Source: a virus (taxonomy: Duplodnaviria; Caudoviricetes). From it: a stretch of DNA of 58,065 nt. The first letter of the stretch is position 1; each line of letters opens with the position of its first letter. The notes under the pieces are model-generated. The model did not search any database and had not been told where the DNA came from. It worked only from the letters and a program-made list of their open reading frames with translations. Location of the stretch: positions 1 to 58,065 of the IMG/VR virus record IMGVR_UViG_3300027911_000015; one strand, 5' to 3'. A program made the translations under genes and the position numbers. Below, piece by piece: positions 5,160 through 55,965 of this stretch.

Positions 5160-8100
5160 TTAGAACAACTTGATAGATACATTTCGTGTAGTCTGACCAC
5201 CACCAACTCCTGCCAGACCAGCAACCGTATTGATTAGGGCTGCGGCAGTGATAGGCTTGACAATAGGCTGAGTTCCTGGAACCGACTGCCAGTTTCCTAC
5301 ATTCAGAACAGACAGACTGTTGTTTGCTGTTTGTTGAACTTGTAGGTTAGGATCAGTAATGACCGTATCAGGAGCCTTCGAGTTATCAACCCAGTTATCC
5401 ATTGGAGGATTCAGTTCAACGATGCCTTGGAACACTGGGTTCGAGAATGGGTTCACCGAAACCGTATTCGAAGCCAACTGCTGAACCACCACATTCGCTG
5501 TTGTATATGGCAGCGTGAAATAGTTCGTTGCCTTGTTCACCGTATTTATCTGGAATCCCAAGGTCGATGGAGAAGTTGCCGAACGGTTCATCGTGCTAAC
5601 TACAGCCACGGAATGTAGAGGATAGTTCGAAACCGTCTGTGCTGCCGACATTGTGCGGTTCAGTCTGTCGATTGCCACTGAGAAGTCTGGGTTCGAAGTA
5701 TCAGCCGTTCCATATGAACTGAAGTCATCAACAAGAATACCATTCTTGAATCGGTTTAGACCATTCGCATCAGGAACTTGAAGTCCCTGCGTGTTCTGTT
5801 CCAGCGTATTCAGACTGGTGTAGTATTCAATGTTATTGATGCGTGTCTGAAGATCCGAAATGTCACTCATTGTCCAACGACGATGCTGAACCTTTTCCAC
5901 GCTAAGGTTAGGAACCACACCCTTAGGTGCTTCAGAAGGAATGAATGCTGTATATGGATCGTGACTTAGCTTGGCAAGAATCAGAGAACCATCTGGTGCC
6001 GCAGGGAAGGCTGGATTGACCGATGGATTACCCTGAACGACCAAGAAGTTCTTATCCTTATTCAGAACCAGCAAGTCCTTGCGAGCCAGATAGTAAGCAT
6101 AGTTACTTGTAAAGTTCGTCAGGTCCTGTGGAAGATACGTTCCCGTATCGTTCGTTGATGGACTTGCTGAGTAATCGAATGCGAATGTCGCCGTTCCATT
6201 TACACGGGTAGGTCTGAAGTCGATACAATCGCGCAGTTGATAGAAGTTACCACCCGAACTTGTGAAGGTAGGAATCTGTGTGTATAGTTCGTTGACATAC
6301 GACATAAGTGAGAAATAACCATCACCACCCGTATGCTTATAGAAGTCGAAAATCACCAACAGATTACCTTGTGGCACAGGCGCACCAGGGTTCAACGTCA
6401 AGAATGCGTGGTCGTAATGTGAGTCCTTCTGACCATTGTTGAATGTGTAGTTCGAAGTCACATCATAGGTTGGATCCGAAAGCATAGCAAGCGTAGGACC
6501 AGCCGAAGAAGACTTCGTATCAATAATCTGGACGATATCCTTCACATCAGAAACATATAGTGATTGGTGAACACCAACACCGACGATAGCAGCATTCTTG
6601 ATATACACTTGTCCATTCGTCAAGTCAACATAGGTATTCGATGCAATGATACCGTCAGGACCTGTGTTGGCGATGACTGCTGTGTTTCCTGATACCAGCG
6701 TCTTGAGTTTCAGAATGTGCTGGTTGTTATCAGCATTCAGAACATTCATCTTGGCGATGACTGTGACTGTCAGAGGAGCCTTATATTTCGTTGAGGTCAA
6801 TGTCAGGATTTCAGAGTGTGTTCCGGAGATAGCGATTGTATTTCCTGACGTACTCCAATCCATGATTGAACCAGGATTTCCGTTGTTCGCCACGTCACCT
6901 GTGCTTACGCAGATGATCGTGTAGTTCTGCTTTACTGAATCAGCAGACAGTGTTCCTGTTCCGCCTTCGAAGCTAACCACACCCTGTAGAGAAACAGGCA
7001 GCGTGACCGACAGAGAACCGCCCGAGAACGCCTTGTTACGGAAAACTTCAGTGGAGTTATAGAAACCACCACCCAGTGTGCTTATATATGGTTGACCGAT
7101 CTGGAATACGAGTTCAGGTGCCGATGAGTTTTCATAGATCGCATCACCTGTTGGGACACCGCCGACCTTACCTTCGTTGTCGATGTTAGCCCATGCAGCC
7201 AAGTTCGTCGTTCCGCTAGCCGTGTTAGCGATTGTTTCAACATCCTTCGTGCCGAAGTGGAGAACGAACTGCGATGTGGTATCTGGTGTGAACGAGAACG
7301 GCGTATCCACCGTCGCAACATGAGAAGCATAACTTACAATCCTACGAACGTCACCAGCAGAAGTTCCCGAAGTGATCGTTAGTGTTACGCCATAATATGC
7401 GTTGGCGACACCCGAGAATGTTCCGTTTGTATCATAGAAAGTGATTGTGTTTGCCGTTCCCGATGCCGCGTTCGATCCCAACGTATTCGTCGTAATATCA
7501 TATACGTATGCCTTATACACATATGATGCCGTGTTAGCATTCGAACCATAGTGGTCGAACACCAGTCCGCGGATGTATCCAGAACCAGCCAGTGTCGATG
7601 CGTAGGTCGTCGTATTCGTAGAAACGACCGAACCGTTAGCAACCGTGTGAAGATCCACTGGCATACCCGTGGTCACGTCGAACACACCATTCGCTGAGTT
7701 CACGAAGAAATAGTTACCGTAGTCGGTAAATACTGGGTTGTTATTCTGTGCTACTGTGTTGCGTGAGCGAGTATTCGTTAGCTTCAGAGTAGACTGGTTC
7801 TCAGCGCGGTAACCATGAACATACGCGATACCGCTACCGATATTCAGATCGTATAGTGTAGATGTGGTATTTGATGATGGGGTGATGCTGAAATCGTTGA
7901 CGATGTAATCGCCGTTCGTTTCGAAGGTTCTCTTGGCGAAGTAGTCATCGATGACACCGTACACCGAACCGTCCACCATCTTGGTAATGATGCCGTTCTC
8001 GATACGGACCAGTTCAACGAAACCATCATCGTCACCAAGAGACAATGGACGGCTTTCCAGCGTAAGGATAATCTGATATCTGTCAGCACCAGGCGCCTGA

Positions 8101-30287: not shown

Positions 30288-30987
30288 TTTCCCTCACCTT
30301 CGTTTTTACAATTTCCTTGAACTTCATTTTATCATAGTTCACGAAAGGAGTATACTTCCTGATCCTTCTATACCAATCAGGAAAGATAATGTCATCATCT
30401 ACCTTCCGTTTCCACATGGGGAGGAAATCCATGAGGTCGTTCAGTATCACTACGGTTTCAATACTGATTCTACCACCCATCAATTCAGACAGCAATACAG
30501 GAAAGGTTCCATACGGAACTTTCAGCCAATCTACAGGTCTCCATTGCGTCAACATATAGTCCAAATCGTTGGAGAATCCATAGGTCAGCGATTGGACTCT
30601 CTTTTGCCATGCATTGTAATTAGACGCAGCATCGTCATTGAGTAGGTCACCTACCCATAGCTTATCGTTGATGATGAAATTGGAAACGAAGAAATTCTTG
30701 GCATCTTCCGCAGTGGTATACTTGCGAGAGAGTTTGTAGAAGAAATATTTGTGGCGGGAGTTCAGGAAAGAATCTTGCTTGTTCTTGGTCTTTCCGTTGT
30801 ACTTGAAGAAATCGTAGGAGTCGGTGGAGAAATGGAGTTTCAGTGCATTGAATAGACAGTAGGTCTCCCATCCACCGAATTCCTTGGGAGCCGTACTGAC
30901 GAAATCACTCTCCTTGCACTTGCAATTGAAAGTTAGTCCGCAGTAGTCACATTCCTGGTCAAACTCATCATCAGAAAGAATGCTCAT
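30277..30987 (-). CDS. gp59: Helicase loader (T4 gp59-like)
   Basis: ALKLHF...YDFFKYNGK, FFYKLSRK, FFVSNF, ISIETVVIL, KYTPF. Confidence 0.92.
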   Translation of the reverse strand: MSILSDDEFDQECDYCGLTFNCKCKESDFVSTAPKEFGGWETYCLFNALKLHFSTDSYDFFKYNGKTKNKQDSFLNSRHKYFFYKLSRKYTTAEDAKNFFVSNFIINDKLWVGDLLNDDAASNYNAWQKRVQSLTYGFSNDLDYMLTQWRPVDWLKVPYGTFPVLLSELMGGRISIETVVILNDLMDFLPMWKRKVDDDIIFPDWYRRIRKYTPFVNYDKMKFKEIVKTKVRENDR

Positions 30988-31595
30988 ACTTTATTTTTAC
31001 AATTATCGAAATGCCACCTAAACATGCCTGATCCTTTACCTGTAAATCCACAAATAGGACACGTATGAATTCTGTTTCCTATTATTTTACCTCCAATTTT
31101 CCCACCTATTTTTCCACCTTTTATTCCTCCTTTTTTACCCATGGAGGAGTACATTTCTGTAGTTGTATTTGCGGCCTTTCTTTTTCCGTTTTGTATGCGG
31201 TGTTCTTTTGTTATGACCTTTATACCCTTTTGTCCGCCTCGAACTTTGGCTTCTTTTGGAACACATCTTGCGGCCATTGCTTGGTGTTTTTTGTCTGTGA
31301 AGAATCTACGAAAAACGACCTTTGCTTCTTCTGAGGACATACCACACGAACTTTTTGTATTATTCATACATTGGGGTTGTCCGAAAACCTCAGAAATATA
31401 TTTTTCTTCTAATATTTTCAATTCTTCTTCAGAATTAGCAAATGACAATATCTCTCTTTTTAATTCAGATTTATCCTTTATACTTTTGATCCACAATCCA
31501 GAACCTAAGTATCCATCATCCATATTATTGGTCGAATGTCTGCCTCGGTAATATTTACCATTTATATGTGTAGTTTGATATATGAAGTGTATCAT
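30984..31595 (-). mobile_element. GIY-YIG (Seg-like) homing endonuclease with GGKI repeats and C-terminal C2HC zinc finger
   Basis: FIYQTT..NGKYYRGRHST..DDGYLGSG; GGKIGGKIGGK; CPICG..MFRWHFDNCK; low GC. Confidence 0.8.
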
Positions 31596-31827: not shown

Positions 31828-32439
31828 TTATAGAATCGTGCTGGTGTAGAAAACGTGTCTACCAATGACCACGAACTGTTTCACGTTGGTCCATTGAGGA
31901 TTTACGTAGGAAGCATGGTAGAACAGAACATTGTATTTCGCTAGTGTAACGTGTGCCACGCCCTTTGTCAAGACATTCTTGGCAATCCACTTCGATTCTT
32001 CCCAATTGTAATAGTTCATCGAGCCAGGTTCGTGATGTTCACCGACCCAGGAGAACTGGTATACCTTGTTTCCTTCCAAGTCTGTTGTGGATTGGTATAC
32101 CACGGCACATATTGTTCCTGGGTATCCCTTCGTGTGCGTCCGATTCATGGTAACCTGAGCTACTGCCAGTTTACCTTCCATCGGTTCATTGCCTGCCTCA
32201 TAGTAGATATTGAGTGCCAGACATTCGATCTGTTTGCGTTCTTCGGCCTTTCTGTCACCGTATTCCTCTACAACCTTCGTGACCAGCTTATCTCTTTCTT
32301 GTGCTTCATGGTGTTGCGCGTGGCTTGTCATCGCCTTTTCGTATTGGTTCTGTGCAAAAAAGGTTGCGCCAGTCAAAAAGACCATGAGTCCTACGGTCAA
32401 AAGGAATGAATTGAGATACTGTTTAATTCGATTAAACAT
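31828..32439 (-). CDS. SleB/CwlJ-family cell wall hydrolase with N-terminal anchor
   Basis: CLALNIYYEAGNEP.EGK.AVAQV..NR, ICAVVYQ, QFSW, FYHA.YV.P.W, IGRHVFY. Confidence 0.9.
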   Translation of the reverse strand: MFNRIKQYLNSFLLTVGLMVFLTGATFFAQNQYEKAMTSHAQHHEAQERDKLVTKVVEEYGDRKAEERKQIECLALNIYYEAGNEPMEGKLAVAQVTMNRTHTKGYPGTICAVVYQSTTDLEGNKVYQFSWVGEHHEPGSMNYYNWEESKWIAKNVLTKGVAHVTLAKYNVLFYHASYVNPQWTNVKQFVVIGRHVFYTSTIL

Positions 32440-32510
32440 GATACTCCCTTGGTTGGTTTTTATTATTCGAACTTTGTTGAATTACTTGATACCATGATGG
32501 TAGTTGAAAC

Positions 32511-32850
32511 GCCAGTTTATGAGGAGCGTGGAAAACTGGCAAAACCCCGGAGTAATTTAGGCTGCGAGAGCCATTTCCTCAAAGAAAACGCTTTCGTTTG
32601 CGTTTAACGTTTTTGCGCTGTTTAACGTGAGTGCTTCACGATTCTCCGTATCGTTACTCGTCGCCCAATCGAAGCCTGGTCGTCCCCATTAGGAAGCATT
32701 TTAGTTTCAGATGCACAGTGGCGGGTCTGACTCCGGACACTTTCGCTTGCCTTTCGGCCCTAAAATGCTTTCTGGTGGAGACGGCGGGAATCGAACCCGC
32801 GTCTTGGACACCTTTCTCTCAACTTCCTTCCCCTAACGGGGTCTTTCGAA
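32511..32850 (-). ncRNA. ssrA: Circularly permuted (two-piece) tmRNA gene; outer ends approximate
   Basis: Acceptor piece ends GCGGG-TTCGATT-CCCGC-CGTCTCC-ACCA at 32773; 85-nt intervening segment; coding piece begins GGGGACG at 32687 (G3.U70 pair); tag frame 32601-32557 = ANESVFFEEMALAA*. Confidence 0.93.
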
Positions 32851-32857
32851 TACTGAA

Positions 32858-32957
32858 TCTCCGCGAGGAATTGAACCTCACGTAACCCTTCTTCCTGGCC
32901 TGCCTTCACCTTTGCGTCGGTGTTGGCTATCGGTGTTCCAGTGTAGTTACTCGGAGA
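32858..32957 (-). ncRNA. Unclassified tRNA-like structured RNA
   Basis: TCTCCG/CGGAGA closing stem stacked on T-arm TGAGG-TTCAATT-CCTCG; GTAAC/GTTAC helix enclosing nested stems; fills the intergenic gap. Confidence 0.6.
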
Positions 32958-32962
32958 AAAAC

Positions 32963-33376
32963 TTACGAGTGGATTTCACCCTTCTTGTCAATCTGCTCGA
33001 ACATCTTCTTCATCTTATCATCAGCCCATGCCATGACTTCTTGCTCATTGTTCTGAATCTCTTTGACCAACTCACCCTTCACATAAGGAGACAATTCGGT
33101 CTTTCTTGTTTCTTCGGCCAGATTCTTGACGCCTGCCACGAAACACCTCTTCGAGAGGTCTTGAATAATCTCTTCGTTCACACCACCAAGTTCGTGGAAT
33201 GTTCCCACTGTAGCCGACTGTAGGCAGCCGAGGTGATATGCAGTAACTCTATGGAAAAATACCATCTCCTGTAGAGTGACCCTGACTTCCTGAGGGGGAG
33301 AAGGTGCTTTTTCTTCCGCAGGAAACACAGAGAATGCAACGAAACCTAGTAATGCAGCAACCAATAGTTTCTTCAA
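32963..33376 (-). CDS. Secreted/periplasmic hypothetical protein; probable TTG start at 33376
   Basis: MKKLLVAALLGFVAFSVFPA signal-peptide pattern after GGGGG; the ORF-track ATG lies inside the promoter. Confidence 0.6.
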   Translation of the reverse strand: MKKLLVAALLGFVAFSVFPAEEKAPSPPQEVRVTLQEMVFFHRVTAYHLGCLQSATVGTFHELGGVNEEIIQDLSKRCFVAGVKNLAEETRKTELSPYVKGELVKEIQNNEQEVMAWADDKMKKMFEQIDKKGEIHS

Positions 33377-33403
33377 TTTACCCCCTACGCTGTCTGAATT
33401 GTT

Positions 33404-33432
33404 ACTATACATGAACCTGTAGTGGAAGTCAA
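33404..33432 (-). promoter_or_regulatory. Sigma70-type promoter TTGACT-N17-TATAGT
   Basis: Near-consensus; would drive the secreted protein, the tRNA-like element and the tmRNA. Confidence 0.7.
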
Positions 33433-33569
33433 TCCGTTTCAGGTAGTTTTTGAATCTTGCGAAGGTAATTTACCGAATATCTGTCCTTCGAATTACCTTT
33501 CCACCGATTTTGTGTACACATGGTACACTTCACGGTCCTCTTGCACTTCTTTCTCTTGAAATTTGCCAT
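33429..33569 (-). CDS. 46-aa basic Cys-containing protein (not in the ORF track)
   Basis: MANFKRKKCKRTVKCTMCTQNRWKGNSKDRYSVNYLRKIQKLPETD. Confidence 0.65.
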   Translation of the reverse strand: MANFKRKKCKRTVKCTMCTQNRWKGNSKDRYSVNYLRKIQKLPETD

Positions 33570-46292: not shown

Positions 46293-47783
46293 TTAGAATC
46301 CGCCCCTTCGAACGTCTACAGTATAGTTCTCAAGTTCTTTACCTTCGGGATCCCGAGTCTGCATCTTTACCTCATATCCCCACAGGTTGCTGAAATGCCA
46401 CAAGGTATACAACGCATCGGTATGTTCCAGTGAATGTCTGCGAGTAGTATAGTGTTGGAGTTGGACATGTCGGTCTCCCCACACATCCACGTCCATCACC
46501 TGAATATTTGGAATAAAGTTGTTCGCGTTTTGCTGATATGAGAGGGCTTCCCTCACCTCTTTATACCCTCTATCGTCATGAATCGATTGCACGATCATCT
46601 TCGGGAATCCATCATCGTCAAGGACATGGAACAGCCTGAAATCTCGAATAACCTTGGGTGACAGGTATTGCATGATGAATGATTCGTCCTTGAAATCATA
46701 TGCCGCGTGTTTCAGTGTGTTGATCCAATCACCGTTGCCAGCCCATTCAGGGAACCACTCCCTATCTTCGGCAGTAGGATTCGTGGCGATACGCTTGATA
46801 TCCTGGAACATTGCGAATCCCAATGCATATGGATTCAACTGCGCCATGGGATGCTGATAGGTCACTCCTGTATGCGAATGCAGGAACTCCATCATGAATC
46901 CATCGGTCACCAGACCACGGTCATACATTTCATTGACGATGGTGTAATGCCAGAATGTGGCCCATCCTTCATTCATCGTCTTGGTCAGCATTTGCGGATA
47001 GAAATACTGGGCCACCTTGCGGACGATCCGAATGACTTCACGCTTCCATGGTTCAAGATTTGGAGCATTCTTCTCAATGAAGTAGAGAAGGTTTTCTTCT
47101 GGTTCCTCGACGGACCTGGGTTGCATAGGAGCTTGATTGGCACCACCAACAGGCACCGTTCTCCACATATCATCGAAGTGTTCTTGGTCGAACTTGTCAC
47201 GGTCCTTCTTCAGTTGTTCCAGAACCGTCTTGGACTTCTTGGCGGGCCTCTTGTATCGGTCTACACCATTCTGCCTCAGCGCATGGGCAGAATCAAGTAC
47301 ATTAGCGACCTCATCGGCACCATACTTCTCTTCGTATTCGGCAATCTTGCTCTTTGCGTAATCCAGGAAATCGATGATAGCCTCTGCATCCGTCCACTGC
47401 TTAAAGAGGTGGTTATTCTTGAAGAAGTTATTGTGTCCGATGCAGGCATGAGCCATGACCAACGTTTGCATGGCCATCGTGTTCTCTTCCATCAGATATG
47501 AAATGCATGGATTGGAATTGATGACGATTTCATAGGCAAGGCCCATATCACCACGCTTGTATCTCTCCTGATTGCTCACGAACTCCTTGCCGAACGACCA
47601 GTGTGAATAGTAGATCGGCATGCCGACGGCCGCATAGGCATCCAGCATTTGTTCGGCTGATATGATTTCAATTTGATTGGGATAGTAATCAAGACCGAAG
47701 TCCTTGGCGATCTTCTCGATTTCGATGTATGTGTCATCGATTTCGTTCGCCGTCCAATCCTTGCAAGAATCAATCTTCTTCAT
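46293..47783 (-). CDS. ycgB: SpoVR/YcgB family protein
   Basis: YPNQIEII..QM.DAY..GMP..Y.HWSFGK, GLAYEIVINSNPCISYLME, HAC.GHN.FFK, MNEGWATFWH, NPYALG. Confidence 0.95.
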   Translation of the reverse strand: MKKIDSCKDWTANEIDDTYIEIEKIAKDFGLDYYPNQIEIISAEQMLDAYAAVGMPIYYSHWSFGKEFVSNQERYKRGDMGLAYEIVINSNPCISYLMEENTMAMQTLVMAHACIGHNNFFKNNHLFKQWTDAEAIIDFLDYAKSKIAEYEEKYGADEVANVLDSAHALRQNGVDRYKRPAKKSKTVLEQLKKDRDKFDQEHFDDMWRTVPVGGANQAPMQPRSVEEPEENLLYFIEKNAPNLEPWKREVIRIVRKVAQYFYPQMLTKTMNEGWATFWHYTIVNEMYDRGLVTDGFMMEFLHSHTGVTYQHPMAQLNPYALGFAMFQDIKRIATNPTAEDREWFPEWAGNGDWINTLKHAAYDFKDESFIMQYLSPKVIRDFRLFHVLDDDGFPKMIVQSIHDDRGYKEVREALSYQQNANNFIPNIQVMDVDVWGDRHVQLQHYTTRRHSLEHTDALYTLWHFSNLWGYEVKMQTRDPEGKELENYTVDVRRGGF

Positions 47784-49132
47784 TGTTTAGCCTTGCGTTC
47801 GAACAACTTGATGAATGATGGATATACATCCTTATCCGATGTGGACAATGCCATTCCCAAGTTGGTGTGTGATTGCGCAATCTTCTCGTAGAGTGGCCAT
47901 AGACCATCCGAGGTCGAAGAGTGCATACCCCAACTCGTATTTTTGTATAGTTGCGAACCGTGATAGTGCGGATCCGCCTGAATGTATGCGAAGTATTGCA
48001 CGATTGGAAGAAGTTTCTTGGTCAGAATGTCCTCAACCTCAAGATTATCTTCGGAGTAGTTATCACCGTCAGAGGCTTGGGCAACATACACATTCCATTG
48101 TTGGAGTGGATATCGTTCCTGAATCGTATCATAGGTCAGTTGGAGGGCCCTTGATACCACCGTGCCTCCTGATTCCTTCGAGTGATAGAACTCATGTTCA
48201 TCAACCTCTTCGGCGTCCGTGTGGTGGCGAATATATACGATTTCGACACGTTCATAGTTCTTTACAAGGAAGAGATACAACAGAAGGAAGAATGTCTTGG
48301 ACATTTTCTTCTTCTCTTCGTCCATTGAACCCGACACGTCAAGAATACAGAACATCACCGCTTGGACAGTAGGAACAGGCACCTTCGTATAGTTGGTGAA
48401 ACGGAGGTCCATTGGGTCAATGAAGGGAACAGCCTTTACACGGCGCTTGAGTGTTTCAATCTGTTTGCAAAGGTCCTCACGTTCCTGTTTTTGTCGGGCA
48501 GCACGTTCGATATCAAGTGAACAATCATGGACACTATGATCCATATCGTACAACTTTTGTTCCGCTTCCTTCAGTTTCTTGGCAAGGGCAGCCCGCAGAC
48601 CGAATCTACGGCCCTTGGCTTGGCGCATTGAGCGAACGATATTCAGTTGGGATGGAGGACCTTCAGAGACATAGCCAGATCGGTGCTTCTCTTCTTCATT
48701 GACCTTGGCAATGGTGCGTTTGAATAGATCGGGAAGTTCGCAGTTCTCAAAGAAGATATCAAGGAACTCTTCTTTCGTCAAGGTGAACTCGAAAGAGTCC
48801 TCACCTTCACCATCCTTGCCTCCCTTGTTTCCTTTTCCCTTACCCTGTTGAGGACGGTCGATTTGGTCACCTGGCACATACTCTTCATTGCCTGGTGCTA
48901 CGATGTGGTGTTCACCAATCGACCTATCATGATGGAAATGAGGCTCTTTGAGGTCCTTTGTTGGGATCTTGACCTTGCCCTTACCATCAGCAAGGTCTTT
49001 CAGATCCGTATCCGAAATGGACTTCCTTACGGCATCCTTCAGGTGTTCTCTCACACGCCCAACAAACTTGCGGCGATTCTCGGAGGATTTACCCTTATTG
49101 TTCAGCCGACGGTCAATGATCGTGTGTGCCAT
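47780..49132 (-). CDS. yeaH: YeaH/YhbH (DUF444) vWA-domain protein (start MAHTIIDRR)
   Basis: IIDRRLN, PGNEEY..GD.I.RP, GEGEDSF.F.L, AVMFCILDVSGSM (MIDAS), IRHHT.A.EVDE, SDGDN. Confidence 0.95.
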   Translation of the reverse strand: MAHTIIDRRLNNKGKSSENRRKFVGRVREHLKDAVRKSISDTDLKDLADGKGKVKIPTKDLKEPHFHHDRSIGEHHIVAPGNEEYVPGDQIDRPQQGKGKGNKGGKDGEGEDSFEFTLTKEEFLDIFFENCELPDLFKRTIAKVNEEEKHRSGYVSEGPPSQLNIVRSMRQAKGRRFGLRAALAKKLKEAEQKLYDMDHSVHDCSLDIERAARQKQEREDLCKQIETLKRRVKAVPFIDPMDLRFTNYTKVPVPTVQAVMFCILDVSGSMDEEKKKMSKTFFLLLYLFLVKNYERVEIVYIRHHTDAEEVDEHEFYHSKESGGTVVSRALQLTYDTIQERYPLQQWNVYVAQASDGDNYSEDNLEVEDILTKKLLPIVQYFAYIQADPHYHGSQLYKNTSWGMHSSTSDGLWPLYEKIAQSHTNLGMALSTSDKDVYPSFIKLFERKAKQ

Positions 49133-49143
49133 TAGGTTTCCGA

Positions 49144-51081
49144 TCAGTGGTTCTTGCGGAACCTCATATACCATTCGACAAGCAACCGAACCTGCTTCTC
49201 GGTGTAACCCTTGCTCATCATACGATCCACGAAGTTCTTATGCTTCGTATCTTCTTCGTTGGTTGCTTTCTTGTTGAAGGAGATAACGGGAAGAAGTTCC
49301 TCTGTGTTCGCAAACATCTTCTTTTCGATAACGTTGCGAAGTTTCTCATATGAAGTCCATGCAGGGTTCTTGCCACCGTTGTTCTTCGATGCGCGAAGGA
49401 CAAAGTTCACGACCTCATTACGGAAATCCTTAGGATTGTCGATCTTGGCAGGCTTCTCGATCTTCTCCAGTTCGGCATTCAGTGCATCGCGGTCGAACAT
49501 TTCGTTCGTATCAGGATCACGGAAGTCCGCATTCTGAATCCATGCATCGGCGTATGTAATGTAACGGTCGAAGAGATTCTGACCATATTCCGAATACGAT
49601 TCGAGATATGCCTTTTGGATTTCGTCCGAAAGGAACTCGGCGTACTTCGGCGTAAGCACCGAGCGAATGAACTTCAGATATTCTTCCTGTGTATCCTTCG
49701 GCAGACGTTCTTCGTAAATCTGCTTTTCGAGAATATACATCAGGTGAATAGGATTGGCAGCGACTTCGCCCTTATCATAATTGAATGTCTTGGACAGGAT
49801 CTTGAAGGCGAAACGAGTGGACATTCCATCCATTCCTTCGGTCACACCAGCATCGTCACGATACTCTTGCAGTGACTTGGCATGAGGGTCCTTATCCTTC
49901 AGGTTCTTGCCGTCATAGATTTCCAGTTTAGAATATAGTGCCGAGTTAGCGGGCACCTTCAGTCGGCTGAGGACACAGAATTTGGCCAACGTATCGAATG
50001 TTCCTGGTGCGCAAACGGCTTCCTTCAGTGAGGAGTTTTCGATCAACTTCTTGTAGATATCAACCTCTTCAGTAACACGGAGGCAATACGGAACCTTGAC
50101 AATCGAAATACGGTCAATAAAGGCTTCGTTGCGGTTGTTGTTGCGGAAGGCTTCCCATTCCGACTCGTTCGAGTGGGCGATGATGATACCATGGAAAGGC
50201 ATCGCAGCGAATCCCTCTGTGCCGTTATAGTGACCTTCTTGCGTGGCGGTCAGGAGAGGGTTCAGTGACTTGATGTTCGTCTTGAAGATTTCAGCATAGT
50301 CCACAAGGCCTTGGCCCGTAACGTTCAGGGCACCAGAGTATGAATAGGCATCAGGATCGGCTTGCGAGAAATCTTCCAGCTTGCGAATGTCCACCTTACC
50401 AACGAGGGATGAAATGTCCTGGTTGTTTTCGTCACCAGGTTCGGCCTTGGCAACACCGATGCGAAGGAGTTGCGAGGGCCAGACCTTGACGATCTTGAAT
50501 TGGGTGATATCGCCTTCGAACTCTTGGAGCCTCTTGGATGCCCATGGCGACATGATGGGTCGCAGCGTCTTGCGGGGAATACCGAACTGGTCCTCAAGCA
50601 TAGGACCATCCTGTTCACCGTCGAAGAGTCCAAACGGCGATTCATAGAGAGGAGAAATCTGGTCGCCAGCCTTCAGTGTATAGAAGGGAACCTTTTCGAA
50701 AAGGTCCTTCAGACGTTCAACGATGGACGACTTGCCGCCTCCAACAGGACCCAGGAGATAAAGAATCTGCTTGCGTTCTTCAAGTCCTTGTTCGGCTCTG
50801 CGAAGGAAGGACACAATATCTTCGATGGTTGTCTCAAGACCGTAGAAATCAGCGAAGGCCTTGTATACATGGATCTTGCGATTCATGAAGATCCGAGAAA
50901 GGCGTTCGTTCTTCGAAGTATCCACCAGTTCGGGTTCACCGATAGCGGACAGCAAACGAGCCGCAGGCGAAGCATACATGGTCGGATCCGTCTTGCATTG
51001 CTCCAGAAAGTCCTGGACGGACATTTCATGTGCAGTGCGCGAAGCGTAACGGGTCTTGTACTTGCCGAAGATATCGCTCAT
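49144..51081 (-). CDS. prkA: PrkA/YeaG AAA+ ATPase (serine kinase/protease family)
   Basis: GLEERKQILYLLGPVGGGKS, EPGDENNQDIS.LVGKVDIR, LLTATQEG.Y, AHSNE.EW, NEAFIDR, GMSTRFAFKILS. Confidence 0.96.
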   Translation of the reverse strand: MSDIFGKYKTRYASRTAHEMSVQDFLEQCKTDPTMYASPAARLLSAIGEPELVDTSKNERLSRIFMNRKIHVYKAFADFYGLETTIEDIVSFLRRAEQGLEERKQILYLLGPVGGGKSSIVERLKDLFEKVPFYTLKAGDQISPLYESPFGLFDGEQDGPMLEDQFGIPRKTLRPIMSPWASKRLQEFEGDITQFKIVKVWPSQLLRIGVAKAEPGDENNQDISSLVGKVDIRKLEDFSQADPDAYSYSGALNVTGQGLVDYAEIFKTNIKSLNPLLTATQEGHYNGTEGFAAMPFHGIIIAHSNESEWEAFRNNNRNEAFIDRISIVKVPYCLRVTEEVDIYKKLIENSSLKEAVCAPGTFDTLAKFCVLSRLKVPANSALYSKLEIYDGKNLKDKDPHAKSLQEYRDDAGVTEGMDGMSTRFAFKILSKTFNYDKGEVAANPIHLMYILEKQIYEERLPKDTQEEYLKFIRSVLTPKYAEFLSDEIQKAYLESYSEYGQNLFDRYITYADAWIQNADFRDPDTNEMFDRDALNAELEKIEKPAKIDNPKDFRNEVVNFVLRASKNNGGKNPAWTSYEKLRNVIEKKMFANTEELLPVISFNKKATNEEDTKHKNFVDRMMSKGYTEKQVRLLVEWYMRFRKNH

Positions 51082-53052: not shown

Positions 53053-53601
53053 TTAGACCTCTCGTTTCATTTTGCATTTGTCGAAATGCCTTTGGAACAT
53101 ACTTGGTCCCTTGCCTGATACGTTACAGTGAGGACAAGTATGAACTCTATTTCCTGTTAGGTATCCACCTTTTCTTCCTGCCGCAGTTTTTTCTTCTGCA
53201 CTCATACTATTCAATCCTTTTTGATAGCCAACTATACAGCCTATCTTTCCTGCTTTGGATCTATTTTCAAAAGTGCCATTTTTTCCACCAATCTTTCCTC
53301 CGATCTTACCTCCTATTTTTCCTGCTTTTGACCTCTGTTCGCGTGTCGTCTTAGCGTGCATTATGGATATGTTTTTTGATCCATTATTTTTTCCATTCTC
53401 TATTTGTTTCAGTTCAATCAAATCTTGACCTGAAATCATGCCGCTAAGTCCTAACCATGCTACCTTATCTTCCCATTGCCCAAATGCTATCCAACGAACA
53501 TGGTGGATTTGGGCATGAGCCTCCAACGATACCTCAAGAATGTTGGAAGGATCATCGGTTCCTCCTAAGTGCTTAGGTATTAGATGATGCTTATGTCTCA
53601 T
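53053..53601 (-). mobile_element. HNH homing endonuclease with GGKI repeats and C2HC finger
   Basis: HHLIPKHLGGTDDPSN..H...H; GKIGGKIGGKIGGK; CPHC..MFQRHFDKCK. Confidence 0.8.
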
Positions 53602-55442
53602 ACAGTAACAGGTTCTCCATTCATGATCTGGTCGATTTGTCGTGCATCGAGAGTTTCATATTGGAGTAGAGCCTGCGTCATTGCTTCAACCTTGTCTCTG
53701 TTTTCCAGAATGAGGAGTTTGGCTTTATGGTATTGTTCTTCAAGAATACGGCGAATCTCAGCATCAATGTCCTGCATTGTCTTTTCGGACACGTTGCGGG
53801 TCTGCGTCACACTGCGCCCAAGGAAAACTTCCCCTTGATTCTCCGCATAAACCATGACACCAAGTTTTTCGGTCATGCCGTATTTTGTAACAATATCTCT
53901 CGCCATATCGGTGGCACGTTGGAAATCACTGCTTGCTCCTGTTGTGATTTGTCCCATGAAAACTTCTTCACAAATACGGCCAGCACATAGAATAGCAATC
54001 TTATCGAGCATGTATTTCAGATCATACGTATGTCTGTCCGCGGAAGGGAGTTGCATTGTGACTCCCAGTGCCCGACCACGGGGGATGATCGTGACCTTAT
54101 GCACAGGATCAGTTTTTTCGACCAACCTTGCAACAATGGCGTGACCAGATTCGTGCACGGCAGTATTCTTCAGGTCATCAGGATCCAGAACCATCGAGCG
54201 CCGTTCAGTCCCCATCATGATCTTGTCCTTGGCCTTTTCGAAGTCCTGCATTTCCACCACCTGCGCATTACGGCGCGCCCCCATCAGTGCGGCCTCATTG
54301 ACCAGATTGGCCAAATCCGCGCCACTAAACCCTGGTGTTCCACGGGCCAGCACCTTCACATCCACTGTGGGTGACACAGGAACCCCCTTCATATGTACCA
54401 GTAGGATCTGTTCCCTTCCCTTAATGTCCGGCAATGAAACAGTAACCTGCCTGTCAAACCGTCCTGGACGAAGGAGGGCAGGGTCCAGCACGTCTGGTCG
54501 ATTGGTCGCTGCGATGACGATAATGGTCTGGTCGGTAGAGAATCCGTCCATTTCCACGAGGATCTGGTTCAGGGTTTGCTCGCGTTCATCGTTACCTCCA
54601 CCTACCCCTGCTCCACGTTGGCGTCCAACCGCATCGATTTCGTCAATAAAGATGATACAGGGGGCATGTTTCTTGGCTTGGGCGAACAGGTCACGAACCC
54701 GAGCAGCGCCAACACCGACGAACATTTCAACGAAGTCGGAGCCCGAGATATGCATGAATGGAACACCAGCCTCACCTGCAATGGCCTTGGCGAGCAGTGT
54801 CTTACCCGTGCCAGGTGACCCTACCATGAGGGCACCACGAGGGATGCGACCGCCGAGTTTCGAGAATCGCGTAGGGTCCTTCAGGAAATCCACGAACTCC
54901 TTGACTTCTTCCTTGGCCTCATCGCAACCCGCAACATCGGTGAATCGTGTCTTGACTTGATCGGGCTCCAGCTTCTTACCCGTGGACTTGCCGAAACTCA
55001 TGGCACCACCAGCACCACGTCCACCCATACGGCGCATGAGCCAGATCCACACAATGACCAGAAGGAGAACAGGACCGAACACCCAGAATACATTGCCGAG
55101 GGACGAGGGCTCAGGTGCAGGGATGTATTCGAGATTGACCTTATGGACACTCAGGGCTTCCATCACCACCTTATCGCCCGAAGGAACAATGGTCGTGATT
55201 TCAGACTTGTCTTTCTCCTTGGCAAAGATGCCCGTGGATCCCGCGCGCAGTTCTTCGAGTTTGGCAGAGACAACCTTATCTGCGTTCACCTCAGTGATAA
55301 ACTGCGTGTAGGTGACCTCGCGAGGAGTAATGTGGGTGTGACTGATAGCTTCTTTCCTCAAGTAATGTGCAATAGCAAAGACAGCAATTGCGGAAACAAA
55401 AAGGATTGCCACTTTAATCTGTAGGTCACTTGGCTTTTTCAT
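53598..55442 (-). CDS. ftsH: ATP-dependent zinc metalloprotease FtsH (full length, two TM)
   Basis: [61 protein letters not shown]. Confidence 0.97.
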
Positions 55443-55965
55443 CAATATTCCTTTTCTTACAGTTATCGAAATGGTATCTTTTCATATTGCGAATACTCTT
55501 CATACCACAATGAGGACATTCTAACATCTTGGCATTTTTCTTTAGAAGATGATGTACCCCTTCCTCAACCAATTTCCTATGTATTTTTCCTCCGACCAAA
55601 ACATTTCTTCCTTCTTCTATCAATTTACGCTGAAGTTCTCCTCCAAGGAAATGATGAGTACCTTCTTTTGATCTTTTCAGTGCATGATATCTTTGAAACC
55701 CACTATCTAAGAAATGATGGGTACCTTCTTCAACTCTTTTCTGGCATAATTCTTTACTATGTTTAGTATACACCTCATGTAAGATTTCTTCTTTTCCTAT
55801 TTGGCCGCTTAATCCTTTCCAAGCAACCTCATCTTCCCAATGGCCGTATTGTTCCCACAGCAATCGATGGGCTTCGGCATGTTCCTCTATTGTAAGTTCT
55901 ACGAGGTTGGAGGGATCGTCTGTGCCTCCCATGTGCTTAGGAATGATGTGGTGTGTATGTTTCAT
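55426..55965 (-). mobile_element. HNH homing endonuclease with EGTHHFL repeats and C2HC finger
   Basis: HHIIPKHMGGTDDPSNLVELT.EEH..AH; four EGxHxxL repeats; CPHC..MKRYHFDNCK. Confidence 0.82.

Follow-up and report, generated by a model that had tools for sequence, protein, structure and literature searches.

Sequence comparison indicates that the tRNA-shaped element lying directly upstream of a phage tmRNA gene is real, and that it belongs to a set of nine or more related tRNA-shaped RNA genes of conserved structure in uncultivated phages. These genes make up a conserved and previously undescribed family of ∼100-113 nt, located inside phage tRNA/tmRNA gene arrays. We favor, with a probability of about 0.6, the proposal that the element is a small tRNA-shaped non-coding RNA gene, which would be cut out by tRNA-processing enzymes to give an RNA acting in trans. 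The original prediction of a new tRNA-like non-coding RNA is upheld, in that eight homologues keep the fold by compensatory changes and none of the nine copies is recognised by Rfam or ARAGORN. Our search of the literature returned no description of the RNA family or of a tRNA-like element upstream of a tmRNA; supplementary tables, namely the phage YrlA lists of PMC4201824 and the tmRNA tables of PMC11915505, were outside its scope.

The element and its surroundings

The window, by which we mean the whole stretch of 58,065 nt that was analysed, is a viral record with a completeness estimate of 34%. The phage is T4-like, with gp32, a gp59-type loader, baseplate wedge proteins and PhoH present. 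On the minus strand, positions 32957 to 32858 read TCTCCG-A-GTAAC-...-GTTAC-G-TGAGG-TTCAATT-CCTCG-CGGAGA. At minimum free energy (-32.9 kcal/mol, z = -2.83) these 100 nt form a three-way junction, in which a closing stem of 6 bp meets a canonical T arm and a single long arm; none of 200 shuffled sequences was equally stable. Both the exact reading and this fold agree with the earlier description of an acceptor-like stem on a canonical T arm with one long irregular arm. The long arm takes the place of both the D arm and the anticodon arm, and comprises the helices GUAAC/GUUAC, CUGG/CCAG, CC/GG and GCC/GGC and the apical hairpin CACC-GACGCAAA-GGUG. The T arm has the canonical 5-bp stem and UUCRANN loop. 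The closing stem, in contrast to the 7-bp acceptor stem and 12-bp stack of tRNA, has 6 bp and gives an 11-bp stack with the T stem. The absence of an encoded CCA and of a G3.U70 pair had been noted correctly, since TTCA follows the closing stem and the pair at position 3 is U-A.

A pattern consisting of a 5-bp T stem, a TTCRA.. loop and a 6-bp closing strand directly after it has a single site on the two strands of the window, which is the element. The same pattern had one site in 7 of 40 block-shuffled windows (mean 0.175). The residual doubt on the structure being real is removed by the compensatory changes seen in the homologues.

Table 1. Coordinates of the element, its parts and the neighbouring features in the window
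Feature	Position	Strand	Basis
tRNA-shaped RNA element	32858..32957	minus	sequence, fold, covariance model, covariation across 9 members
Covariance-model match to the element	32959..32856	minus	model R2
Closing (acceptor-like) stem, 5′ strand UCUCCG, pairs with CGGAGA 32863-32858	32952..32957	minus	sequence, fold, covariation
Stem S1, 5′ strand GUAAC, pairs with GUUAC 32886-32882	32946..32950	minus	fold, model alignment
Conserved 5′ core: UACA, CUGG (P2), AACA, CC (P3), GAUA, GCC (P4)	32925..32945	minus	alignments
Variable apical hairpin AA-CACC-GACGCAAA-GGUG-AA	32905..32924	minus	fold; different in each member
Conserved 3′ core: GGC, A, GG, CCAG, GAAG, then AAG	32888..32904	minus	alignments
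T arm UGAGG-UUCAAUU-CCUCG, canonical T loop	32864..32880	minus	sequence, fold, covariation
Closing stem, 3′ strand CGGAGA	32858..32863	minus	sequence, fold, covariation
3-nt spacer UUC (TTC) from element to start of tmRNA acceptor piece	32855..32857	minus	L229 alignment
tmRNA acceptor piece; T arm GCGGG-TTCGATT-CCCGC 32800-32784, then GTCTCC-A-CCA ending 32773	32773..32854	minus	RF04321, ARAGORN, L229/L115 homology
tmRNA intervening segment, removed on two-piece maturation	32688..32772	minus	Rfam alignment
tmRNA coding piece; 5′ GGGGACG (G3.U70 with acceptor piece); tag frame ANESVFFEEMALAA and stop, 32601-32557	32466..32687	minus	ARAGORN, Rfam
Upstream ORF, 149 aa as listed	32963..33412	minus	ORF list
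Sigma-70-like promoter match TTGACT-17-TATAGT, 10/12	33404..33432	minus	consensus match only

The tmRNA beside the element is a permuted two-piece gene, with a match to Rfam RF04321 at 32829..32557 (108.3 bits) and an ARAGORN tmRNA* call at 32866..32466, the sole RNA gene that this program called in the whole window. ARAGORN found no tRNA in the window, and the Rfam tRNA model had no match there at E ≤ 10. When Rfam 15 was searched over 32400-33100 at E ≤ 10, only tmRNA models matched, none of them on the element itself. The YrlA and Y RNA models, whose inclusion had been suggested as a check, likewise had no match, either here (32400-33100, E ≤ 10) or in the regions of the eight other members (E ≤ 1). 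None of the nine members overlaps an Rfam match and none is called a tRNA by ARAGORN. The statement that the element fits neither tRNA nor tmRNA holds: it departs from tRNA as described above, it has no G3.U70, CCA or tag frame as in the tRNA-like domain of tmRNA, and the tmRNA models match the neighbouring gene only. A glutamine riboswitch has been described in the 3′ domain of Melnitz ssrA (PMC9004378); no glnA-type Rfam match was found here.

The stop codon of the upstream ORF lies 5 nt before the element. Read from the sequence, the start of this ORF is more likely the in-frame TTG near 33376, with a signal-peptide-like translation (MKKLLVAALLGF...). No PHROG or Pfam family was found for the 149-aa product, and the two flanking proteins (149 aa and 203 aa) had no relatives in viral contigs. 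The sigma-70-like site precedes the upstream ORF, and a scan with the same type of consensus gave no promoter-like site between this ORF and the tmRNA. No tRNA-processing enzyme was present among the window proteins scanned.

Homologues and covariation

Eight homologues were identified in other viral contigs. Three of them (L313, L314 and L315) came from a scan with a 22-mer probe, 32946-32925, from the conserved 5′ half of the long arm, and have the same architecture as the window element with different stems; the other five came from covariance-model searches of whole records. Two covariance models were used, R1 and R2, the latter seeded with four sequences including that of the window. Over ∼3.0 Mb of loci, R1 matched only the window, L313, L314 and L315, at 98-109 bits. 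The score of R2 on the window (103.7 bits, E 2e-23) is high by construction, the window being one of its four seeds, and it is therefore the five more diverged non-seed members recovered by R2 from 252 whole records (G064, G166, G180, G227 and G244, at 36-53 bits) that provide independent support for the family.

The family is rare, with five new members in 249 further whole records searched. They are distributed as 0/50 gp32 relatives, 1/99 tRNA-pair records and 4/100 tmRNA-survey records; the complete records behind L211-L228 and L279-L308 lie outside this R2 count. Each member record has one copy. No family member was present in 50,697 deposited phage genomes, on which the 100-nt query gave two chance matches at E ≤ 10 and a 1001-nt query only a 41-nt T-arm match. 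Two pattern scans of prokaryote genome contigs returned 0 and then 7 pattern matches, none of the seven matching R1, and a strict three-part pattern had no match in metagenome contigs. By blastn, the element had no match in 129 tmRNA loci, in all collected loci or in 50 whole related records.

The lead to the 22-mer probe came from X2, one of two DNA runs compared with the window, in which one 151-nt contig of depth 3.3 matches only 32882-32951, that is, the single A and the whole long arm, with 10 other letters and 3 gaps. The differences listed (four substitutions and two insertions) all fall at 32911-32919 in the apical loop, and the 5′ half has none of those listed. Beyond 32951 the contig is unlike the window; in the RNA sense it resembles the 3′ end of a different acceptor piece (...CUCCACCA then AAAGCAC...), and a 21-mer from this flank had no match in viral contigs. 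The variant is a single low-depth contig and was treated as a lead only, the parts of the stretch that run X2 leaves uncovered being uninterpretable.

Covariation was assessed on alignments of four, five and nine sequences. In these, 91.0%, 90.4% and 88.6% of cells are paired, respectively, percentages that are inflated since the pairs were counted on model-fitted alignments, which lean to structure. The number of pairs changed on both sides rises from 13 to 17 to 19 of the 25. For nine sequences the shuffles have 69.6% of cells paired and slid controls reach at most 46.5%, and none of 500 shuffles attains any of five measures; the corresponding counts are 0/500 for five sequences and 0/500 for four, with 1/500 on one of the five measures in the latter case. 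Changes on both sides are seen in all 6 pairs of the closing stem, all 5 pairs of S1 (93.3% of cells paired) and all 5 pairs of the T stem across the nine members. The covariance model from homologues that had been recommended as a check has been built, and none of the eight homologues abuts a tmRNA. The earlier account had named a decayed tRNA pseudogene and, jointly with the absence of a discrete transcript, a lack of covariation as grounds for abandoning the idea; the nine copies with compensatory changes speak against a pseudogene and do show covariation.

The sequence of the junction behaves in the opposite manner to the stems, and together with the T loop stays constant while the stems change completely. 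Near-invariant in all nine members are UACA-CUGGAA (kept throughout with one C-to-G change), CCAGGAAG, a GG just 5′ of the 3′ strand of S1 and the T-loop UUC(A/G)A, although these invariants derive from nine sequences of few independent lineages, for several of which the search probe or model was itself taken from the core. A single change, C-G to G.U, interrupts the invariance of P2 (CUGG/CCAG). Conservation of the inner part (CACCGAUAGCC ... GGCAGG) is limited to the subgroup of the window, where the 14-mer GGCAGGCCAGGAAG (32904-32891) is identical in all four members though it lies outside the probe. The apical hairpin is free to vary. The window copy has every feature by which we define the family, namely the closing stem, S1, the junction UACA/CUGG..CCAG/GAAG..GG, the T arm and the location in an RNA-gene array.

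Between the closing stem and S1 there are 0-3 nt, with no D-loop analogue. Five members were read base by base (the window copy, L313, L314, L315 and L330); none of them encodes CCA, and in four a U directly follows the closing stem. Read by eye, the stack of closing stem and T stem measures 11 bp in the window and L313, 12-13 bp in L314 and 15 bp in L315; the last is misregistered by the model, its closing stem having 11 bp by eye. Because this stack is not the fixed 12 bp of tRNAs, recognition of the element by RNase P is not assured.

Genomic neighbourhoods and the relation to tmRNA

A tRNA-array location was found for 7/8 homologues, and six of the eight have a same-strand tRNA gene within 30 nt. 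The L314 member (record G052) lies 5 nt after a tRNA-Ser and 3 nt before a tRNA found only by Rfam, inside an array of 16 tRNAs; this record is T4-like, and has a permuted tmRNA 6 kb away. The L315 member is similarly placed, 4 nt after a tRNA-Thr and 3 nt before a tRNA-Gly. Those of L333, L334, L335 and L336 are 10-26 nt from a same-strand tRNA, that of L330 is 108 nt from a tRNA-Met in a tRNA-rich stretch, and that of L313 is between two protein genes. Only the window copy abuts a tmRNA (0/8 homologues). Since seven of the eight homologues are near tRNA genes, the family belongs to tRNA arrays and is not tmRNA-specific. No neighbouring protein gene is common to the members that would hint at a partner. 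Homing-endonuclease-like ORFs occur in the same regions as members.

The closest gp32 relatives, L229 and L230 (78% identity), are syntenic and have a homologous tmRNA, and the element is absent from both. Their similarity to the window begins at AGTATTCGAAAGACCCC, which corresponds to 32854, and the stop codon of their upstream ORF abuts it. The conserved start of the acceptor piece is therefore 32854, only TTC (32857-32855) separating it from the element, and since the similarity starts at this point in relatives without the element, we place the element just outside the tmRNA gene, 3 nt upstream, as a lineage-specific addition. As the closest relative phage has the same tmRNA without it, the element is dispensable for tmRNA maturation. 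From comparison with L115 and L152, in which one compensatory change is seen, AUUC (32851-32848) is the outer helix strand of the acceptor piece. An insertion within the acceptor piece was considered as an explanation of the element and was dropped after the L229 and L115 alignments. A pattern scan of contigs for the tmRNA sublineage returned only two L115-type loci, both without the element.

In a biased scan that required an upstream T loop, 10 loci were found. In 8 of them the acceptor piece is immediately preceded by a tRNA (Met, Arg, Leu or Thr), and 2 (L107 and L110) have a degenerate tRNA-like remnant upstream of the tmRNA. At two loci, L109 and L184, a tRNA-Asn fills the tmRNA intervening segment. 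These tRNAs that directly flank other phage permuted tmRNAs, or fill their intervening segment, offer a processing precedent. In an unbiased scan for permuted tmRNAs (at least 120 stretches, with 118 new loci among the matches listed), a tRNA within 130 nt upstream was present in only 2/118 of the new loci among the matches listed. A T-arm scan of the permuted tmRNA loci revealed only two further, doubtful upstream sites. Among 80 gp32-relative loci, ARAGORN called a tmRNA in 30 and a tRNA in none, and ahead of the tmRNA there is mostly an ORF stop directly adjoining it, or a promoter. An upstream tRNA as a general rule for phage permuted tmRNAs was rejected on these counts. Nonetheless, tRNA genes or tRNA-shaped modules do occur directly before, inside and after phage two-piece tmRNA genes, which bears on how the two pieces are excised from longer transcripts.

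Proposed role, alternatives and comparison with known RNAs

According to the proposal that we favor, the element would be transcribed within a polycistronic precursor, running from the promoter-like site through the upstream ORF and the element into the tmRNA. RNase P would cut at the 5′ side of the closing stem, a cut of the RNase Z/BN or RNase E type followed by trimming would form the 3′ side, and excision would release a stable RNA. In the window phage the 3′ cut of the element would also create, as a by-product, the 5′ end of the acceptor piece 3 nt downstream; maturation of two-piece tmRNA is regarded in a review as probably helped by RNase P and tRNase Z (PMC3985003). The released RNA may then act in trans via its invariant junction, most likely as a platform or decoy for a protein that recognises tRNA-shaped RNAs, and one may speculate that the conserved GG docks on the T loop as G18-G19 do in tRNA.

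A more specific version, which we put forward tentatively and regard as distinctly less probable than the general proposal, is that of a trans-acting phage RNA whose tRNA disguise (closing stem and T arm, possibly with a GG/T-loop elbow) gives it entry into the host tRNA and ribosome-rescue machinery, where the junction would capture a specific host or phage protein. Candidate partners are a tRNA-targeting defence nuclease, a tRNA-modifying or tRNA-processing enzyme and a component of the tmRNA-SmpB pathway. Of the decoy targets suggested earlier (anticodon nucleases, SmpB and EF-Tu), the sequence speaks against EF-Tu and anticodon nucleases, and likewise against an alanylation decoy, in that it has no CCA, no G3.U70 and no anticodon arm. 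If this trans reading were true, the family would be a new class of phage counter-defence or takeover RNA, alongside the GOLLD- and ROOL-type RNAs in tRNA islands.

Four other explanations were weighed, and we rank them in the order of cis-acting punctuation only, a mobile module, a tRNA pseudogene and a part of the tmRNA. The first, which we think unlikely, is that the element is a processing spacer that only attracts tRNA-processing nucleases, so that mRNA is parted from tmRNA here, and tRNAs from one another elsewhere, while what is excised has no function of its own. In its favor is the local arrangement, with only 3 nt separating the element from the acceptor piece and no promoter-like site found from the upstream ORF to the tmRNA; tRNAs hold the same position in other phage tmRNA loci or, as the tRNA-Asn genes of L109 and L184, lie in the intervening segment, and the X2 contig puts a long-arm homologue just after an acceptor-piece CCA. 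However, tRNA arrays need no extra punctuation because the neighbouring tRNAs supply the cleavage sites, and yet 6/8 homologues are found there. For a spacer, too, the closing stem and T arm would suffice, yet it is the non-tRNA junction that is conserved most strongly. Finally, the closest relative phage and most relatives do without the element, and the 2/118 count of the unbiased scan, among the matches listed, holds for tRNAs directly upstream. Of the earlier suggestion that the element is a punctuation mark generating the 5′ end of the tmRNA, what survives is a plausible local side effect in the window phage; as the purpose of the element it is weakened by the absence of homologues abutting a tmRNA, by the closest relative tmRNA without an element and by that count.

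Somewhat less probable still is a selfish or mobile RNA-gene module that enters RNA-gene islands (tRNA arrays, or the leader or intervening segment of tmRNA) and is merely tolerated. The sporadic distribution over the three record sets would be expected of such a module, and each member has different flanks; the X2 contig, which matches the 5′ half of the long arm exactly and is unrelated beyond 32951, is consistent with it, as are the homing-endonuclease-like ORFs of the same regions. On the other hand, each record has one copy, no common transposase or integrase was found, and no terminal repeats or target duplications were noticed, although these were not searched for systematically. Moreover, the compensatory changes by which the stems have diverged point to selection acting on the RNA fold over a long time, and not to a spread of recent date.

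A decaying tRNA pseudogene that keeps its acceptor and T arms by chance, without function, is very improbable and has been largely refuted by the covariation. Such remnants are present upstream of other phage tmRNAs (in L107 and L110, a closing stem and GGTTCGAATCC with a poor T stem), and ARAGORN and Rfam give the element no tRNA score; but neutral decay would not produce nine copies in different phages with the same non-tRNA architecture, compensatory changes in three helices and an invariant junction. Least probable of all is that the element is part of the tmRNA itself, with an acceptor piece beginning at ∼32959 and an extended helix 2 in which UUCUCCG and GUUAC of the element are paired to the coding-piece words CGGAGAA and GUAAC: by our own reading the coding piece does have CGAGUAAC-GAUA-CGGAGAA, the same words as the 5′ CGAGUAAC and 3′ CGGAGA of the element and in a fitting order, and the Rfam alignment is without an outermost helix on the acceptor side, but L229/L115 homology puts the outer helix strand at AUUC, downstream of the element, L229 has the same CGGAGAAU-type segment without an element, the eight homologues are not beside a tmRNA and fold alone, and by our estimate an 8-mer in common is expected ∼0.4 times by chance for these lengths.

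The nearest analogues of the element are T4 species 1 RNA (rnaC) and the YrlA Y RNAs. Species 1 RNA is cut by RNase P. By our own fold of the annotated 139 nt (z -4.57), it resembles the element in having a canonical T arm, CCGGG-UUCGAAU-CCCGG, beside the 3′ strand of a closing stem that pairs the RNA end to end. Again there are long non-tRNA arms where tRNA has its D and anticodon arms, and again the RNA has no encoded CCA, no Rfam family and no tRNA score. Unlike the element, rnaC has two long arms and lacks the UACA/CUGG..CCAG/GAAG..GG junction. R1 matches nothing at E ≤ 1 in the T4 tRNA region (L312), and there is no sequence relation to rnaC. Species 1 RNA and rnaD are described as small stable RNAs from the tRNA region of a T4-type phage whose function is still open (PMC3014915, PMC9697503).

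YrlA Y RNAs are described as tRNA mimics bound by Ro60/Rsr, some of them phage-encoded, with a canonical T arm in the tRNA-like module, and cutting by RNase P as well as attachment of CCA are reported for YrlA of M. smegmatis (PMC4201824). The segment UGG-AACA-CCGA of the element loosely recalls the Ro-binding motif of YrlA (GGUCCGA / GNCGAAN0-1G). The topology differs, however. YrlA has its ends in the Ro-binding stem, a capped stem-loop for an ‘acceptor’, and a D arm; the element has no D arm, and its ends belong to the stem stacked on the T arm. The TROVE (Ro60) domain PF05731 was not found in G000, G051, G052, G053 or G064, all of which are fragments, 2-34% complete.

The tRNA-like domain of tmRNA shares with the element a topology in which a single long helix accompanies an acceptor-type stem and a T arm and the D arm is reduced, but differs from it by its G3.U70, CCA, D-loop analogue and tag frame. 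A CDS-less tmRNA-like RNA of a mycobacteriophage has been reported to inhibit host tmRNA (PMC11915505).

The principle of punctuation is seen at phage tmRNA loci in which tRNAs lie beside or inside the tmRNA gene. Punctuation by tRNAs or tRNA-like elements is found in tRNA operons, mitochondrial transcripts and mascRNA-type elements. As in these systems, the element is a tRNA-shaped module between two gene products, where cuts of the RNase P/Z type would separate them. In contrast to them, most members of the family stand amid ordinary tRNAs, a setting that calls for no additional signal, and the tRNA-like part is not the conserved one.

GOLLD and ROOL resemble the family as structured phage or prophage RNAs with open function that lie beside tRNA genes and occur in lake phage genomes, and a GOLLD RNA (RF02032, 202 bits) is located 107 nt upstream of the L335 member; no GOLLD match was found in the other eight member regions scanned. 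They differ from the family in being hundreds of nucleotides long and not tRNA-shaped. T4 RNA C and D, GOLLD and ROOL are examples of structured RNAs, hidden in phage tRNA islands, whose roles have been open for decades. To these our finding adds a compact family (∼105 nt) that covaries clearly, keeps its non-tRNA junction invariant and occupies a defined position in tRNA/tmRNA precursors, a class of RNA gene that is missed in annotation by ARAGORN and Rfam and is small enough for direct biochemistry.

Variation at the tmRNA locus

In the DNA sequencing run X2, contigs covering the flanks at window positions 32300-32524 and 33059-33500 showed no differences from the window, and the contigs broke between 32524 and 33059. 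One contig matched the window up to 32574 and then diverged into other sequence; read in the frame of the window, it would specify a shorter tag with the end ...ANEQMALAA. This suggests that the tmRNA cassette exists in a variant form at the strain level.

The tmRNA of the two closest relatives by gp32 (L229, at ~1500-1800, and L230) was not called by ARAGORN. Its T-loop region is aberrant, with GCGGGGGGCAGTGCCTCGCC replacing GCGGGTTCGATTCCCGCC, and it keeps the acceptor stem with G3.U70 and has a tag frame. Within the nearest tmRNA sublineage (loci L115, L152, L309 and L310), the leader position is taken by a small hydrophobic ORF (MCDQTGDF...KELL*), and the acceptor piece begins within the stop codon of this ORF or overlaps it at its 5' end.

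RNAs adjoining phage permuted tmRNAs or tRNAs

In L101 and L103-L106 (which are identical loci), L010, L102, L108 and L084, a tRNA is located 20-30 nt 5' of the acceptor piece of the permuted phage tmRNA. These tRNAs are canonical or near-canonical; they comprise Met, Arg, Leu and Gly-like tRNAs and a Met-like one whose variable arm is long. A TTGACA/TATAAT promoter lies immediately 5' of the tRNA in the L101-type loci and L010, and at the latter locus the tRNA-like sequence and the tmRNA have the acceptor 5' strand GGGCCUG in common. At two further loci, L109 (1865-1937) and L184, the intervening segment of the permuted tmRNA is occupied by a complete tRNA-Asn(GUU) gene, flanked by the acceptor-piece CCA on one side and the coding-piece GGGG on the other; an additional tRNA-Thr is found immediately upstream.

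Other structured or tRNA-like elements lie outside the nine-member family. Loci L107 and L110 carry a degenerate, ARAGORN-negative tRNA-like remnant ~70 nt 5' of the acceptor piece, comprising an 8-bp closing stem (AUCCGGU../..ACCGGAU) plus GGUUCGAAUCC, with the T stem almost absent. A structured leader of ~90 nt precedes the tmRNA at L276:2811-2899 and is identical in L277. Its sequence is unrelated to the element and matched neither family covariance model (R1 or R2); it folds (z -2.4) into a 9-10 bp closing stem, ACACACUAU/AUAGUGUGU, and an adjoining hairpin, GUAGG-UGGGAAU-CCUAC. The ARAGORN-negative tRNA-like element at L070:10279-10383, 18 nt 5' of a four-tRNA run, combines a closing stem of 14 bp with a hairpin containing UUCGAUU; it lacks the family core and scored only 19 bits with R1.

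Gene neighbours of the family and of the window tmRNA

A GOLLD RNA (RF02032, 202 bits) occupies L335:931-1394, and a tRNA-Lys falls within the match; the family member of this locus follows 107 nt downstream of the GOLLD RNA, and a tRNA-Ile 231 nt downstream. The tRNA at L327:1617-1687 (positions 5320-5390 of the whole record, G052) lies 3 nt downstream of its family member; it reaches 43 bits with Rfam and is not called by ARAGORN. ORFs similar to the homing-endonuclease-like ORF of the window occur in the G052 tRNA array (L326:3771-4442) and in L313.

FtsH-like, PrkA / DUF444 / SpoVR and homing-endonuclease-like genes of the window
Feature	Position	Strand	Remarks
FtsH-like protease	53598-55445	-	FtsH_ext, AAA and Peptidase_M41 domains
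PrkA / DUF444 / SpoVR trio	46293-51081	-	
Homing-endonuclease-like ORF	30984-31595	-	phrog_314; 0.9 kb downstream of tmRNA

The window phage may carry both the tagging and the degrading parts, because in E. coli FtsH is among the proteases that degrade SsrA-tagged proteins.
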